Shown here piece by piece: positions 19,363 to 23,440 of a DNA stretch of 64,000 bases. Position 1 is the stretch's first letter, and each line of letters begins with the position of its first letter. Source of the DNA: Escherichia coli (GTDB lineage: Bacteria > Pseudomonadota > Gammaproteobacteria > Enterobacterales > Enterobacteriaceae); the NCBI RefSeq assembly GCF_046105845.1, contig NZ_CP151004.1; one strand, written 5' to 3'. The notes under the pieces were generated by a model, which was not told where the DNA came from, made no database searches, and saw only the letters and a list, made by a program, of their open reading frames with translations. Made by a program: the position numbers and the translations under genes.

Positions 19363-21027
19363 ATGTGTTCAATTTTTGGCGTATTCGATATCAAAACAGA
19401 CGCAGTTGAGCTGCGCAAGAAAGCACTCGAGCTGTCACGCCTGATGCGTCATCGTGGCCCGGACTGGTCCGGTATTTATGCCAGCGATAACGCCATTCTC
19501 GCCCACGAACGTCTTTCCATTGTTGACGTTAACGCGGGGGCGCAACCTCTCTACAACCAACAAAAAACTCATGTGCTGGCAGTAAACGGTGAAATCTACA
19601 ACCACCAGGCATTGCGCGCTGAATATGGCGATCGTTACCAGTTCCAGACCGGGTCTGACTGTGAAGTGATCCTCGCGCTGTATCAGGAAAAAGGGCCGGA
19701 ATTTCTCGACGATTTGCAGGGCATGTTCGCTTTTGCCCTGTACGACAGCGAAAAAGATGCGTATCTGATTGGTCGCGACCATCTGGGGATCATCCCACTG
19801 TATATGGGCTATGACGAACATGGTCAGCTGTATGTGGCCTCAGAAATGAAAGCCCTGGTGCCGGTATGCCGCACGATTAAAGAGTTCCCGGCGGGGAGCT
19901 ATTTGTGGAGCCAGGACGGCGAAATCCGTTCTTATTATCATCGCGACTGGTTCGACTACGATGCGGTGAAAGATAACGTAACCGACAAAAACGAGCTGCG
20001 TCAGGCACTGGAAGATTCCGTTAAAAGCCATCTGATGTCTGATGTGCCTTACGGTGTGCTGCTATCTGGTGGCCTGGATTCCTCAATCATTTCCGCGATC
20101 ACCAAGAAATACGCCGCCCGTCGCGTGGAAGATCAGGAACGCTCTGAAGCCTGGTGGCCGCAATTACACTCCTTTGCTGTAGGTCTGCCGGGTTCACCGG
20201 ATCTGAAAGCAGCCCAGGAAGTGGCAAACCATCTGGGCACGGTGCATCACGAAATTCACTTCACTGTACAGGAAGGTCTGGATGCCATCCGCGACGTGAT
20301 TTACCACATCGAAACCTATGATGTGACCACTATTCGCGCTTCAACACCGATGTATTTAATGTCGCGTAAGATCAAAGCGATGGGCATTAAAATGGTGCTG
20401 TCCGGTGAAGGTTCTGATGAAGTGTTTGGCGGTTATCTTTACTTCCACAAAGCACCGAATGCCAAAGAACTGCATGAAGAGACGGTGCGTAAACTGCTGG
20501 CCCTGCATATGTATGACTGCGCGCGTGCCAACAAAGCGATGTCAGCCTGGGGCGTGGAAGCACGCGTTCCGTTCCTCGACAAAAAATTCCTTGATGTGGC
20601 GATGCGCATTAACCCACAGGATAAAATGTGCGGTAACGGCAAAATGGAAAAACACATCCTGCGTGAATGTTTTGAAGCGTATCTGCCTGCAAGCGTGGCC
20701 TGGCGGCAGAAAGAGCAGTTCTCCGATGGCGTCGGTTACAGTTGGATCGATACCCTGAAAGAAGTGGCGGCGCAGCAGGTTTCTGATCAACAGCTGGAAA
20801 CTGCCCGCTTCCGCTTCCCGTACAACACGCCGACGTCCAAAGAAGCGTATCTGTACCGGGAGATCTTTGAAGAACTGTTCCCGCTTCCGAGCGCCGCTGA
20901 GTGCGTGCCGGGCGGCCCTTCCGTCGCGTGTTCTTCCGCTAAAGCGATCGAGTGGGATGAAGCGTTCAAAAAAATGGACGATCCATCTGGTCGTGCGGTT
21001 GGTGTTCACCAGTCGGCGTATAAGTAA
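19363..21027 (+). CDS. asnB: Asparagine synthetase B, glutamine-hydrolysing (554 aa)
   Basis: ORF 19282..21027; internal ATG 19363 gives MCSIFGVFDIKTDAVELRKKALELSRLMRHRGPDWSG..., N-terminal Cys nucleophile. Confidence 0.95.
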   Translation: MCSIFGVFDIKTDAVELRKKALELSRLMRHRGPDWSGIYASDNAILAHERLSIVDVNAGAQPLYNQQKTHVLAVNGEIYNHQALRAEYGDRYQFQTGSDCEVILALYQEKGPEFLDDLQGMFAFALYDSEKDAYLIGRDHLGIIPLYMGYDEHGQLYVASEMKALVPVCRTIKEFPAGSYLWSQDGEIRSYYHRDWFDYDAVKDNVTDKNELRQALEDSVKSHLMSDVPYGVLLSGGLDSSIISAITKKYAARRVEDQERSEAWWPQLHSFAVGLPGSPDLKAAQEVANHLGTVHHEIHFTVQEGLDAIRDVIYHIETYDVTTIRASTPMYLMSRKIKAMGIKMVLSGEGSDEVFGGYLYFHKAPNAKELHEETVRKLLALHMYDCARANKAMSAWGVEARVPFLDKKFLDVAMRINPQDKMCGNGKMEKHILRECFEAYLPASVAWRQKEQFSDGVGYSWIDTLKEVAAQQVSDQQLETARFRFPYNTPTSKEAYLYREIFEELFPLPSAAECVPGGPSVACSSAKAIEWDEAFKKMDDPSGRAVGVHQSAYK

Positions 21028-21040
21028 GAAATGCGGTACT

Positions 21041-21066
21041 GCCCCGGAGAAATCCGGGGCTGTTTT
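21041..21066 (+). terminator. Rho-independent terminator of asnB
   Basis: GCCCCGGAgaaaTCCGGGGCtgtttt. Confidence 0.6.
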
Positions 21067-21338
21067 AGTTATTGAGCTGCTTGTTGATTCTGATACGCAG
21101 TGAGGAAATGTTCCGGATTTGCTACATCGCTGTTTGACAACTCATCACTGTAGGCCAGTATTTCATAGATTAATTTCCCACCACTATTGTTGAATTCCGA
21201 ATTTCATCCTGTATGACAAAAGAATGGCTGTAGGGTGGGGAAAAAACACAAAGTAAACAATAATTGACGAATATAGCGCCACGCTGTTCGCAACCTAACC
21301 AAACAGTCACTTTCGAGCAATTTTCCTTGAAAAAGAGG

Positions 21339-21367
21339 TTGACGCTGCAAGGCTCTATACGCATAAT
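21339..21367 (+). promoter_or_regulatory. Sigma70 promoter of the tRNA operon (stringent-type)
   Basis: TTGACG (-35), 17-bp spacer, CATAAT (-10), followed by GC-rich discriminator gcgcccc. Confidence 0.5.
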
Positions 21368-21407
21368 GCGCCCCGCAACGCCGATAAGGTATCGCGAAAA
21401 AAAAGAT

Positions 21408-21484
21408 GGCTACGTAGCTCAGTTGGTTAGAGCACATCACTCATAATGATGGGGTCACAGGTTCGAATCCCGTCGTAGCCACCA
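21408..21484 (+). tRNA. metT: tRNA-Met (CAU), elongator
   Basis: GGCTACGTAGCTCAGTTGGTTAGAGC...CTCATAA anticodon loop...GTAGCCACCA; cloverleaf, encoded CCA. Confidence 0.9.
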
Positions 21485-21492
21485 TCTTTTTT

Positions 21493-21577
21493 GCGGGAGT
21501 GGCGAAATTGGTAGACGCACCAGATTTAGGTTCTGGCGCCGCAAGGTGTGCGAGTTCAAGTCTCGCCTCCCGCACCA
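21493..21577 (+). tRNA. leuW: tRNA-Leu (UAG), long variable arm
   Basis: GCGGGAGTGGCGAAATTGGTAGACGCACCAGATTTAGGTTCTGG...CGCACCA; anticodon TAG. Confidence 0.9.
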
Positions 21578-21600
21578 TTCACCAGAAAGCGTTGTACGGA

Positions 21601-21675
21601 TGGGGTATCGCCAAGCGGTAAGGCACCGGTTTTTGATACCGGCATTCCCTGGTTCGAATCCAGGTACCCCAGCCA
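21601..21675 (+). tRNA. glnU: tRNA-Gln (UUG)
   Basis: TGGGGTATCGCCAAGCGGTAAGGCACCGGTTTTTGATACCGG...CCCCAGCCA; anticodon TTG. Confidence 0.9.
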
Positions 21676-21709
21676 TCTTCTTCGAGTAAGCGGTTCACCG
21701 CCCGGTTAT

Positions 21710-21784
21710 TGGGGTATCGCCAAGCGGTAAGGCACCGGTTTTTGATACCGGCATTCCCTGGTTCGAATCCAGGTACCCCAGCCA
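21710..21784 (+). tRNA. glnW: tRNA-Gln (UUG), second copy
   Basis: Identical sequence to the copy at 21601. Confidence 0.9.
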
Positions 21785-21799
21785 TCGAAGAAACAATCT

Positions 21800-21876
21800 G
21801 GCTACGTAGCTCAGTTGGTTAGAGCACATCACTCATAATGATGGGGTCACAGGTTCGAATCCCGTCGTAGCCACCA
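21800..21876 (+). tRNA. metU: tRNA-Met (CAU), elongator, second copy
   Basis: Identical sequence to the copy at 21408. Confidence 0.9.
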
Positions 21877-21924
21877 AATTCTGAATGTGTCGAATAAGTT
21901 CGGCAAATTCACAAACCAATTTGT

Positions 21925-21999
21925 TGGGGTATCGCCAAGCGGTAAGGCACCGGATTCTGATTCCGGCATTCCGAGGTTCGAATCCTCGTACCCCAGCCA
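21925..21999 (+). tRNA. glnV: tRNA-Gln (CUG)
   Basis: TGGGGTATCGCCAAGCGGTAAGGCACCGGATTCTGATTCCGG...; anticodon CTG. Confidence 0.9.
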
Positions 22000-22036
22000 A
22001 TTTATTCAAGACGCTTACCTTGTAAGTGCACCCAGT

Positions 22037-22111
22037 TGGGGTATCGCCAAGCGGTAAGGCACCGGATTCTGATTCCGGCATTCCGAGGTTCGAATCCTCG
22101 TACCCCAGCCA
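22037..22111 (+). tRNA. glnX: tRNA-Gln (CUG), second copy
   Basis: Identical sequence to the copy at 21925. Confidence 0.9.
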
Positions 22112-22114
22112 CAT

Positions 22115-22147
22115 TAAAAAAGCTCGCTTCGGCGAGCTTTTTGCTTT
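22115..22147 (+). terminator. Rho-independent terminator of the tRNA operon
   Basis: aaaaaAGCTCGCttcgGCGAGCTttttgctttt. Confidence 0.7.
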
Positions 22148-22159
22148 TCTGCGTATATT

Positions 22160-22262
22160 CAATGTCGAATGCGATGTTGACACGTCTTATCCTTCAAAGT
22201 CGGATGCGACGCTGACGCGTCTTATCCGACCTACAGTTGGCACGCATCCGGCAATGTTGTAA
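22160..22262. repeat. REP-type palindromic units between tRNA operon and ubiF
   Basis: gtcggatgcgacgctgacgcgtcttatccgacctac and ggcacgcatccggcaatg. Confidence 0.5.
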
Positions 22263-22264
22263 GG

Positions 22265-23440
22265 CTACAACCCTAACGCATATTTCAGCGCCTGACGTTT
22301 CAACACGCCAGCACGCTCCGCCGCCATCAAACCAAGATTACGCACAAAACGCAGCGGCGGCAGATTATTACTGAATCCGGCATAAAACAGATCCATACCG
22401 CTCTGCATAATGAAGTTATCCGCCATGCGCCGCATCTGGTAACGCTTGAGGACAGGATAACTGGCCCACGCTTCGCCGTAGCTGCGGGCATTCACCAGAA
22501 CGTCAATCAGGGCATCGACATCACGATAACCAAGATTCACCCCCTGCCCCGCCAGCGGATGGATGGTATGCGCGGCATCGCCCACCAGCGCAAGCCCTGG
22601 CTGCACATACTGCAACGCATGGCGACGCGTCAGCGGAAACGCACCAGCGGCAAGCGGTGTCACGTAACCCAGACGCGACGGGAAATGCTTCGCGATTTCC
22701 GCCTGGAGCTGTGCCATATTCATATTCTGCAACTGGCGAATGCGCGCCGGAGAGTCATACCACACCAGCGATGCCCAGTTATCAAACAACGGCAGAAACG
22801 CACGCGGTCCGTCCGGGGTAAATTGCTGCCAGGTGCTATCGCCGGGATCGTTCTCGCACTGTACGCTAATCAACATACACGACTGTGCATACTGCCAGGC
22901 ATGAACGCCAATTCCCGCCATCTGCCGCACCTGCGAATTTGCGCCGTCGGCACCAATCACCAGCTTCGCGCGGATCGTTTCTCCACCCTTCAGTTCCAGC
23001 TCCTGAAGATCATCATGGCGATGCAGCGCAATCAGCGAGCCTGGCACACGTAACGTTACTTTTGGATGCGCTTCCAGCGCCTGCCACAGCGCCTGTTGCA
23101 GGACGGTGTTTTCCACCATATAGCCAAGCAGCGGCAGCTTAAGTTCAGCGGCGTCAAACACCACATGCGCCGTTTCCCACTCCCACGTTTCCAGTCTGCG
23201 GTAAGGATGGCAACGCATAGCCTGTACTGCATCCCAGACCCCTAACCCTTTAAGCAATGATACCGAAGCCGCACTAATCGCCGAGATCCGCACGTCCGGC
23301 TGGCTGTCAGCGACAAACGGTGCAGGTTGGGCATGTTCGATCACCATTACCGAAAATCCGTGCTGAGCCAGTCCCAGCGCCAGTGCGCCGCCGACCATTC
23401 CTCCGCCGACAATGGCAATTTCCGTTGGTTGATTTGTCAT
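22265..23440 (-). CDS. ubiF: Ubiquinone biosynthesis FAD-dependent hydroxylase UbiF (391 aa)
   Basis: ORF 22265..23446; ATG at 23440 gives MTNQPTEIAIVGGGMVGGALALGL..., GxGxxG FAD motif. Confidence 0.93.
   Translation of the reverse strand: MTNQPTEIAIVGGGMVGGALALGLAQHGFSVMVIEHAQPAPFVADSQPDVRISAISAASVSLLKGLGVWDAVQAMRCHPYRRLETWEWETAHVVFDAAELKLPLLGYMVENTVLQQALWQALEAHPKVTLRVPGSLIALHRHDDLQELELKGGETIRAKLVIGADGANSQVRQMAGIGVHAWQYAQSCMLISVQCENDPGDSTWQQFTPDGPRAFLPLFDNWASLVWYDSPARIRQLQNMNMAQLQAEIAKHFPSRLGYVTPLAAGAFPLTRRHALQYVQPGLALVGDAAHTIHPLAGQGVNLGYRDVDALIDVLVNARSYGEAWASYPVLKRYQMRRMADNFIMQSGMDLFYAGFSNNLPPLRFVRNLGLMAAERAGVLKRQALKYALGL

Follow-up and report, generated by a model that had tools for sequence, protein, structure and literature searches.

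The array of seven tRNA genes at positions 21408-22111 of the window (the whole 64-kb stretch of Escherichia coli DNA that was analysed) is almost certainly the long-known metT operon, expressed as one precursor, in which the members of each duplicated pair are kept alike by purifying selection together with recombinational homogenisation. The metT operon is real, ordinary and already known. It was first described in 1981 and is a textbook locus, to which the suppressor alleles supE and supB belong; E. coli has no other source of elongator tRNA-Met, of tRNA-Leu(UAG) or of either tRNA-Gln species. Both the anticodons and the match to K-12 metT...glnX were checked, and neither gave evidence against the identification. 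The operon is essential (PMC11480407), which we relate to the fact that K-12 has all its genes for elongator tRNA-Met, tRNA-Leu(UAG) and both tRNA-Gln isoacceptors there.

In the window ARAGORN calls seven tRNA genes and no more, all on the plus strand, and it agrees with Rfam on the order Met(CAU)-Leu(UAG)-Gln(UUG)-Gln(UUG)-Met(CAU)-Gln(CUG)-Gln(CUG). All seven score between 57.6 and 71.1 bits with the Rfam model RF00005, whose gathering score is 29, all carry a genome-encoded 3' CCA, and all are 100% identical to named K-12 genes: metT for elongator tRNA-Met(CAU) (21408-21484, identical to K-12 b0673), leuW for tRNA-Leu(UAG) (21493-21577), glnU (21601-21675) and glnW (21710-21784) for tRNA-Gln(UUG), metU for the second elongator tRNA-Met(CAU) (21800-21876), and glnV (21925-21999) and glnX (22037-22111) for tRNA-Gln(CUG). 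At glnV, the supE locus, the anticodon in the window is the wild-type CTG. Direct string comparison gives no mismatch between metT and metU over 77 nt, nor between glnU and glnW or glnV and glnX over 75 nt, and exact repeats of this length (75-77 nt) cannot have arisen by chance. The six spacers measure 8, 23, 34, 15, 48 and 37 nt and no two are alike. The first-pass annotation had described seven genes with three exact internal duplications and differing spacers, and had named ARAGORN as a means of checking the loci and their anticodons; its coordinates, gene order and anticodons are all right, the three pairs are indeed identical, and the spacers do differ.

Elongator tRNA-Met is told from the initiator by the pairing of positions 1:72 and by the three G-C pairs at the base of the anticodon stem. 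In metT the acceptor strand GGCTACG pairs with CGTAGCC, so that G1-C72 is a Watson-Crick 1:72 pair, and the anticodon stem CATCA/TGATG has no run of three G-C pairs. Judged by these features, metT and metU are genes for elongator tRNA-Met and not for initiator tRNA-fMet or for tRNA-Ile2; their sequences are also identical to those of the experimentally defined elongator genes metT and metU, which are named as such in the literature (PMC6265465). An elongator tRNA of this kind would keep C34 free of conversion to lysidine and would be charged with Met.

Of 5426 complete E. coli genomes, 5265 contain at least 80% of the region, with asnB and ubiF flanking it, and the open reading frames of the window together with the annotation of the matching genomes place the array between these same two genes. 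Compared to the metT operon of K-12 MG1655, the gene order, the anticodons, the asnB and ubiF neighbours, the promoter core and the terminator are the same, the promoter core, the leader and the terminator hairpin being without a single difference. The two strains differ at four spacer sites within 21408-22111, namely the length of a T-run at 21486 and positions 21889, 21897 and 21912, which is ordinary strain-level polymorphism. Larger changes also occur within the species: in strain 0H23 one Gln-CUG copy is cleanly deleted along with its spacer. The assembly of strain CEA224S has a chromosome without the array. Relocation to its plasmid was ruled out, since pCEA224S has no tRNA gene, and the array is most likely missing through an artefact of assembly. 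Among the PLSDB records matching the array most measure from 280 kb to 5.4 Mb, which suggests that these large matches are mislabelled chromosomal sequence.

A scan of positions 21000-22500 returns a sole promoter-like site, TTGACG-17-CATAAT at 21339-21367 on the plus strand, whose hexamers match the consensus at 10 of 12 positions with a 17-bp spacing. In 44 Enterobacterales species the -35 hexamer TTGACG (21339-21344) is 99.2% conserved, the -10 hexamer CATAAT (21362-21367) 100%, and the segment 21368-21390, which comprises the discriminator GCGCCCCGC, the probable start at about 21375 and the early leader AACGCCGATAAGGT, 98.9%. The 17-nt spacer between the hexamers is only 65% conserved in the same species, and the DNA neighbouring the promoter elements about 65%. 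Immediately 5' of the -35 lies an A-tract, GAAAAAGAG (21329-21337), resembling a proximal UP-element subsite, the AAAAA core of which (21330-21334) is invariant in the 44 species; we take it to match the UP consensus AAAAAARNR and consider it a candidate element. Further upstream a block at about 21283-21306 is partly conserved. A leader hairpin, CGATA-AGG-TATCG, was considered as a conserved element and rejected, its 3' half being unconserved and its fold no better than those of shuffled sequences (z = -0.9). The metT precursor used in published in-vitro work begins at CGCAACGCCGATAAGGTA (PMC3985628), and this 5' end and the 44-species footprint together point to a start near 21375. The 5' leader, removed by RNase P, would then be about 33 nt long (21375-21407), and in an rnpA49 strain a metT species of about 125 nt keeps its unprocessed 5' end (PMC2241853). 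The promoter position proposed in the first-pass annotation is thus strongly backed by the footprint and by the 5' end of the published precursor.

The same annotation called the promoter stringent-type. This is inferred from the sequence, the discriminator being GC-rich and identical to that of tyrT, a classic GC-discriminator stable-RNA promoter under stringent control. The identity to the K-12 tyrT promoter extends over ATGCGCCCCGC, which takes in the end of the -10 together with the discriminator, and a downstream CCGATAAGG is shared in the early transcribed region at almost equal distance. The two promoters differ in the -35, which is TTGACG in metT and TTTACA in tyrT, and their upstream regions are unlike. 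A literature search for ppGpp or DksA data on the metT promoter found none.

The terminator scan places a Rho-independent terminator on the plus strand at 22117-22150, with an 11-bp stem, a UUCG loop and a U-tract, the hairpin occupying 22117-22142. The predicted fold has a free energy of -16.3 kcal/mol (z = -4.15). Most of the 44 species retain the terminator, its stem taking forms such as GCTCGC/GCGAGC, GCCCGC/GCGGGC and GGGGCGAC/GTCGCCCC, and termination of the metT operon at its terminator has been demonstrated experimentally in vivo (PMC2241853). The strong terminator noted at first reading is thus borne out by the scan, the fold, its conservation and published experiment.

It could be asked whether these two signals bound a single unit, or whether the distal half, Met-Gln-Gln, is transcribed from a further promoter in front of metU. 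An arrangement of this kind can be seen in Budvicia, where a 222-nt spacer preceding a second Met-Leu-Gln unit has a copy of the promoter, TTGACG...GATAATGCGCTGCGCAA. In the window, however, only 15 nt separate glnW from metU, within the region in which the scan found a single site, and Northern blots show both the full-length transcript of seven tRNAs and an intermediate of five tRNAs running across the glnW-metU junction (PMC2241853), so that a second promoter at this place is highly improbable. The published experiments describe a single transcript processed by RNase E and RNase P (PMC2241853, PMC3985628, PMC9841416), in which the first five tRNAs are parted by RNase P and not by RNase E, the latter acting only downstream of metU (PMC2241853).

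Put together, transcription would start at about 21375 from one sigma-70 promoter (UP-like A-tract, TTGACG, 17 bp, CATAAT and GCGCCCCGC), and the heptacistronic precursor of about 770 nt would end at the intrinsic terminator at 22117-22150. According to the published experiments RNase E strips off the terminator and parts metU, glnV and glnX, and RNase P parts the first five tRNAs and generates every mature 5' end; 3' exonucleases then trim the molecules to the genome-encoded CCA.

The first-pass annotation had also taken the identity of the pairs as a sign of concerted evolution of the tRNA bodies. Pair identity in one genome alone cannot separate concerted evolution from purifying selection, so that a comparison across species was needed. 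The sample consisted of asnB-anchored loci from about 45 Enterobacterales species in which the array follows asnB. Across this sample there are 13 alleles of Met, 17 of Gln-UUG and 23 of Gln-CUG, and paralogs often share one multi-substitution allele, as in Yersinia, where both Gln-UUG copies have the same eight changes. The mean difference between paralogs within a genome is 0.62 nt for Met, 0.48 nt for Gln-UUG and 1.52 nt for Gln-CUG. Between species, copies at the same position differ by 2.23, 3.49 and 5.35 nt and copies at different positions by 2.39, 3.61 and 5.42 nt, respectively. Paralogs within a genome are therefore 3-7 times closer than orthologs, and the tRNA bodies are without positional signal, since orthologs at the same position are no nearer than copies at different positions. 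None of 10000 permutations reached the observed within-genome similarity, in a test that ignores phylogenetic relatedness. The spacers keep their positional orthology: in 65 of 85 comparisons a spacer was matched best by the one at the same position.

These data bear first on the possibility that purifying selection alone is responsible, every copy having been preserved as it was after an old duplication and none having recombined with another. The tRNA bodies are very strongly constrained, the single-copy leuW having the same sequence in 33 sampled species, and the differences from K-12 within the array are confined to spacers. For the Gln(UUG) pair of E. coli selection alone could be sufficient, because its allele is the commonest among the sampled species (27 of them). 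As an account of all three pairs it is nevertheless unlikely: the bodies do vary between species, in the numbers of alleles given above, and when they do both copies usually share the multi-site allele; the absence of positional signal and the outcome of the permutations both speak against it; and in genera with orthologous spacers the Gln-CUG alleles form a mosaic across positions, being found as (=,=), (=,B), (B,=) and (B,B).

The pairs might instead be young tandem duplicates that have not had the time to diverge, rather than old copies that have been homogenised. Recent tandem amplification does occur in this array. In Superficieibacter a 69-nt Gln-CUG spacer is present in two identical copies, as is a 41-nt Gln-UUG spacer in Serratia silvae, repeats which point to recent unequal crossovers, and copy number differs both between species (1-4 Gln-UUG genes and 1-3 Gln-CUG genes) and inside E. 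coli, where the deletion in strain 0H23 is likewise an apparent product of unequal crossing-over. In the window, however, the spacers flanking each pair member differ, and they are orthologous to the spacers at the same position in Citrobacter, Enterobacter, Pseudocitrobacter and other genera, with 62-91% identity, from which it follows that the seven-gene scaffold predates these genera. Both the glnU-glnW and the glnV-glnX spacer have homologues in the closest outgroups. Recent duplication is thus a very unlikely origin for the pairs of the window.

The comparison between species therefore upholds concerted evolution, through the cross-species distances, the permutations and the orthology of the spacers, and it supports a homogenisation that would be confined to the tRNA bodies and would act in addition to a strong purifying selection. 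In many species this homogenisation has not gone to completion. Paralogs still differ in 12 of 39 species for Met, 9 of 33 for Gln-UUG and 14 of 29 for Gln-CUG, a fraction of roughly a quarter to a half according to the family, and the Gln-CUG copies of Enterobacter differ at up to about ten sites. As to the mechanism, gene conversion, unequal crossing-over or both, taking place between the 75-77-nt repeats, may homogenise the tRNA bodies; spacers would evolve apart from the bodies, constrained to retain their hairpins. These data do not discriminate between gene conversion and repeated rounds of unequal crossover. Conversion tracts as such are beyond resolution in repeats of 75 nt. The evolution of the metT-operon tRNA genes may, reportedly, already have been treated by Withers et al. 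in 2006.

Two hairpins in the distal spacers, identified by folding and covariation on the plus strand, are conserved and covarying, and are well supported. The hairpin of the metU-glnV spacer (21882-21911), in the part of the precursor which is cut by RNase E, has a free energy of -11.1 kcal/mol (z = -3.0) and shows compensatory changes in seven of its eight pairs, with 94% of cells paired against 27-51% for slid partners. The hairpin of the glnV-glnX spacer (22012-22028) is smaller, at -6.1 kcal/mol, and has compensatory changes in six of seven pairs, with 98% of cells paired against 21-50% for slid partners. For each of the two the observed covariation score was reached by none of 500 shuffles. 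Visible in the sequence of the glnU-glnW spacer is also a small hairpin, GCGG-TTCA-CCGC (21690-21701), which is found in most Enterobacteriaceae with variant stems, for example GCGTGTAAACGC and GTGTGTAAACAC; it is absent from the minimum-free-energy fold of the isolated spacer, a fold which is itself not significant.

A candidate long-range helix may enclose glnW, with its first arm, TTCTTCGA, just after glnU (21678-21685) and its second, TCGAAGAA, just after glnW (21785-21792). When the best helix is counted at the anchored position flanking glnW, 19 of 32 species have one of 7 bp or more, in about nine versions of its sequence, whereas shuffled controls average 3.4 and never exceed 9; this count is the one positive result. 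When each species was folded separately, its spacers did not stand out significantly from shuffled ones, 8-63 of 100 shuffles being as good. The MAFFT alignment set the variable T-runs out of register; an ungapped column count is weak, the paired share of cells being 70%, with 50-65% for slid partners, and a value as high as the observed one arising in 27 of 2000 shuffles. The helix is only suggestive, and if true it would sequester both 3' trailers, those of glnU and glnW. On a tentative proposal that we hold to be rather doubtful, the spacers would be more than neutral filler and would carry a conserved layer of RNA structure, made up of the two distal hairpins, both in the half cut by RNase E, and of the candidate helix, which would set the cutting site of each nuclease and the sequence of the cuts.

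For the window the confirmation matters chiefly as the right annotation, and the operon serves as a model substrate for processing by RNase E and RNase P. The comparative part adds little beyond this: a clean case of homogenisation limited to tRNA bodies, inside a framework (spacers, promoter and terminator) that predates the enterobacterial genera under comparison. The covarying hairpins of the distal spacers are a further small addition, and neither result would come as a surprise to a specialist.

As a precursor, the metT operon can be placed beside argX-hisR-leuT-proM, glyVXY and secG-leuU. It has in common with them an intrinsic terminator that is taken off by RNase E, and A/U-rich single strands in the spacers beside structured elements. 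It differs from them in that its first five tRNAs are separated by RNase P (PMC2241853).

As a set of repeated genes, it can be compared to RNA gene families, tandem or dispersed, that evolve in concert, such as the bacterial rrn operons and tRNA gene families. The repeats of the metT operon are only 75-77 nt long and about 110-400 bp apart, and homogenisation is incomplete, with a mechanism that is here inferred from sequence, all of which sets it apart from these families. In both cases paralogs within a genome are more alike than orthologs between genomes, the functional RNA is homogenised while its flanks diverge, and copy number shifts via unequal recombination.

Exactly seven tRNA genes, all on the plus strand, were called by ARAGORN in the whole 64-kb window: metT Met(cat) at 21408-21484, leuW Leu(tag) at 21493-21577, glnU and glnW Gln(ttg) at 21601-21675 and 21710-21784, metU Met(cat) at 21800-21876, and glnV and glnX Gln(ctg) at 21925-21999 and 22037-22111. 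All seven encode the CCA end and were also found by the Rfam tRNA model RF00005 (57.6-71.1 bits; gathering score 29), in agreement with the location, order and anticodons given in the first-pass annotation. Its claim of three identical pairs separated by differing spacers also stands: direct comparison within the window showed no difference between the two Met genes (77 nt each), the two Gln(UUG) genes (75 nt each) or the two Gln(CUG) genes (75 nt each), and the six spacers of 8, 23, 34, 15, 48 and 37 nt are no two alike. Between the UUG and CUG genes, 7 of 75 positions are different. Both CAU genes are of the elongator type, with G1-C72 paired and an anticodon stem CAUCA/UGAUG lacking the initiator's three G-C pairs; metT and metU have been described as identical elongator tRNA-Met genes (PMC6265465).

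The array is the K-12 metT operon itself and hence already known, its first description being attributed in PMC4041420 to Nakajima, Ozeki and Shimura (1981). It is preceded by nagD and asnB and followed by ubiF (opposite strand) and miaB. All seven genes are 100% identical to their K-12 counterparts, the only differences from the metT 5' end to the glnX CCA being four spacer sites (21486, 21889, 21897 and 21912), and the promoter core, leader and terminator hairpin show none. At least 80% of 21200-22300 is present in 5265 of 5426 complete E. coli genomes, the matching ones annotating two tRNA-Met, one tRNA-Leu and four tRNA-Gln adjoining ubiF; one strain matches 21330-22150 at 100% identity. 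In MG1655 every copy of these four tRNA species is encoded in this one transcription unit, which is therefore essential (PMC11480407).

Variation was observed around the array. The asnB-metT intergenic region (21028-21407) measures 380 bp here and 379 bp in K-12; other E. coli strains (L001 3398-4208 and L002, two comparison loci) have about 811 bp there, with an annotated 438-nt hypothetical ORF of opposite orientation, the difference being an insertion/deletion polymorphism. REP-like sequences, e.g. GTCGGATGCGACGCTGACGCGTCTTATCCGACCTAC, lie between the terminator and the ubiF 3' end (22170-22260), the K-12 annotation carrying no repeat feature at the equivalent position, and with the flanks added to the query the median count of matching places in an E. 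coli genome rose from 5 to 7. In the 'complete' chromosome of E. coli CEA224S (L083, NZ_CP166080.1) the promoter and terminator are kept and the seven-tRNA block is gone, the gap being exactly 705 bp (equivalent to 21407-22111) with the junction ...GCGAAAAAAAAGA|CATTAAAAAAGCTCGC...; the sole plasmid of this strain has no tRNA gene. Given that K-12 cannot do without these genes and that frameshifted pseudogenes abound in the annotation of the plasmid, the likeliest explanation is an assembly artefact. The array-bearing 'plasmid' records of PLSDB (H56-H70) are mostly of 280 kb to 5.4 Mb, which suggests mislabelled chromosomal sequence; exceptions are CP043024.1 (E. coli, 28.8 kb, 93% identity) and a 117-kb plasmid of Arsenophonus nasoniae with a partial array (84% identity).

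The promoter scan returned TTGACG-17-CATAAT at 21339-21367 as the sole promoter-like site within 21000-22500. Across 44 aligned Enterobacterales species the -35 and -10 hexamers are 99.2% and 100% conserved, the segment 21368-21390, in which the discriminator GCGCCCCGC is joined by AACGCCGATAAGGT, reaches 98.9% and the A-tract at 21330-21334 is invariant, as against about 65% for the 17-nt promoter spacer and upstream DNA. This conservation strongly supports the position of the promoter proposed in the first-pass annotation, with its GC discriminator. The K-12 tyrT promoter (L088 1324-1440, minus strand) and the metT promoter both carry ATGCGCCCCGC and, a few bases further downstream, at transcript positions of about +8 to +16, the motif CCGATAAGG, for which we know of no described function. 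This early-transcribed stretch of metT is almost invariant in the 44 species, so that conservation reaches past the discriminator. By sequence, the metT promoter belongs to the GC-discriminator stable-RNA class, e.g. tyrT, and the label 'stringent-type' denotes a putative property read from this hallmark; a literature search found no ppGpp data for the metT promoter. The published in-vitro metT precursor starts at CGCAACGCCGATAAGGTA (PMC3985628), so that the 5' end of the RNA falls at about 21374-21375 and the leader is about 33 nt long. The block around GCTGTTCGCAACCTAACCAAACAG (21283-21306), some 70-90 bp upstream of the transcription start, is partly conserved and could be a site for a regulator such as FIS.

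At the other end, terminator scan and folding identified a terminator at 22117-22150 (plus strand; -16.3 kcal/mol, z = -4.15) whose 11-bp stem and UUCG loop are followed by a U-tract. It is kept in most of the 44 species with stems that differ yet stay complementary, and the strong terminator first proposed is supported. A full-length seven-tRNA transcript has been detected, in which RNase E cleaves off the terminator and frees metU, glnV and glnX from one another, the first five tRNAs being parted by RNase P (PMC2241853). RNase E cleaves downstream of metU by direct entry, requiring the single-stranded spacer and the upstream glnW tRNA (PMC3985628, PMC9841416). The array spacers are not random filler. 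Folding and covariation revealed a hairpin in the metU-glnV spacer (21882-21911, plus strand; -11.1 kcal/mol, z = -3.0), with compensatory changes at 7 of 8 pairs and 94% of cells paired (27-51% for slid partners), and covariation a second one in the glnV-glnX spacer (22012-22028, plus strand), with 6 of 7 pairs compensated and 98% of cells paired (21-50%); each observed score was reached in 0 of 500 shuffles. Both lie within the precursor half separated by RNase E, with A/U-rich single strands on their flanks, and may act as RNase E recognition elements. A candidate long-range 8-bp helix, formed by the 3' trailers that directly follow glnU (TTCTTCGA, 21678-21685) and glnW (TCGAAGAA, 21785-21792), would have all of glnW inside it. 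Enterobacteriaceae, Erwiniaceae and Edwardsiella show it in about nine sequence versions, and it fails per-species and column-based controls; with such mixed statistics it is only suggestive.

Since identity within one genome cannot tell recombination from selection, 80 species-level loci were compared, anchored on AsnB and chosen independently of tRNA sequence. The Met-Leu-Gln...Met-Gln... array lies downstream of asnB in about 45 Enterobacterales species, with 1-4 Gln(UUG) and 1-3 Gln(CUG) copies, and is absent at this position in the AsnB-anchored loci of Orbaceae, Vibrionaceae and Alteromonadales. The tRNA bodies vary among species, with 13 alleles for Met, 6 for Leu, 17 for Gln(UUG) and 23 for Gln(CUG); many of the differences are compensatory stem changes, and the same multi-site allele is often common to the paralogs of one genome: both Gln(UUG) copies show one identical set of eight changes in three Yersinia species, and both Met copies T16C, T30G, A42C and A60T in many genera. 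Mean differences within a genome, between species at the same position and between species at different positions were 0.62, 2.23 and 2.39 nt for Met, 0.48, 3.49 and 3.61 nt for Gln(UUG), and 1.52, 5.35 and 5.42 nt for Gln(CUG); the within-genome similarity was reached in 0 of 10000 permutations for each family, in a test that ignores phylogeny. Same-position distances being close to different-position ones, the tRNA bodies carry no positional (orthology) signal. Spacers, unlike tRNA bodies, do: in 65 of 85 comparisons (chance expectation 1 in 5) an E. coli spacer was matched best by its counterpart at the same position, identity to Citrobacter, Enterobacter and Pseudocitrobacter being 62-91%. 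These distances, permutations and spacer matches support the concerted evolution suggested by the first-pass annotation, and a homogenisation limited to the tRNA bodies, working inside an older scaffold, is well supported. It is incomplete, as paralogs differ in 12 of 39 (Met), 9 of 33 (Gln(UUG)) and 14 of 29 (Gln(CUG)) species.

Where the spacers of different genera are orthologous, the two Gln(CUG) positions carry the alleles (=,=) in Escherichia, (=,B) in Citrobacter werkmanii, (B,=) in Pseudocitrobacter and (B,B) in Citrobacter FP75 and "Enterobacter" Ag1. Products of unequal crossover are directly visible: two identical 69-nt spacers in Superficieibacter, two identical 41-nt spacers in Serratia silvae, and the natural E. 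coli strain 0H23 (L082; equivalent to 21925-22036), where one Gln(CUG) copy and the glnV-glnX spacer are cleanly lost to leave a single gene, as expected of recombination between identical glnV and glnX. Further rearrangements were observed. The array of Budvicia diplopodorum lacks Gln(CUG) genes and runs Met-Leu-Gln-Gln-[222 nt]-Met-Leu-Gln, and the 222-nt spacer (L064 8329-8550) holds a second promoter copy, TTGACG...GATAATGCGCTGCGCAA, indicating that the whole unit was duplicated in tandem; this is a possible model for the origin of the two-half array of E. coli. The leuW-glnU spacer of Escherichia albertii (L003 8058-8161) has a length of 104 nt, against 23 nt here; the additional 81 nt start with TGGGG, as a Gln gene does in its first five bases, and end with AAATTTGT, similar to the end of the metU-glnV spacer, which suggests a rearrangement scar.

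For the E. coli Gln(UUG) pair selection alone would suffice, since its allele is the commonest among the sampled species. For the array, these data do not distinguish gene conversion from unequal crossover; the pattern of homogenisation is the familiar one of RNA gene families.
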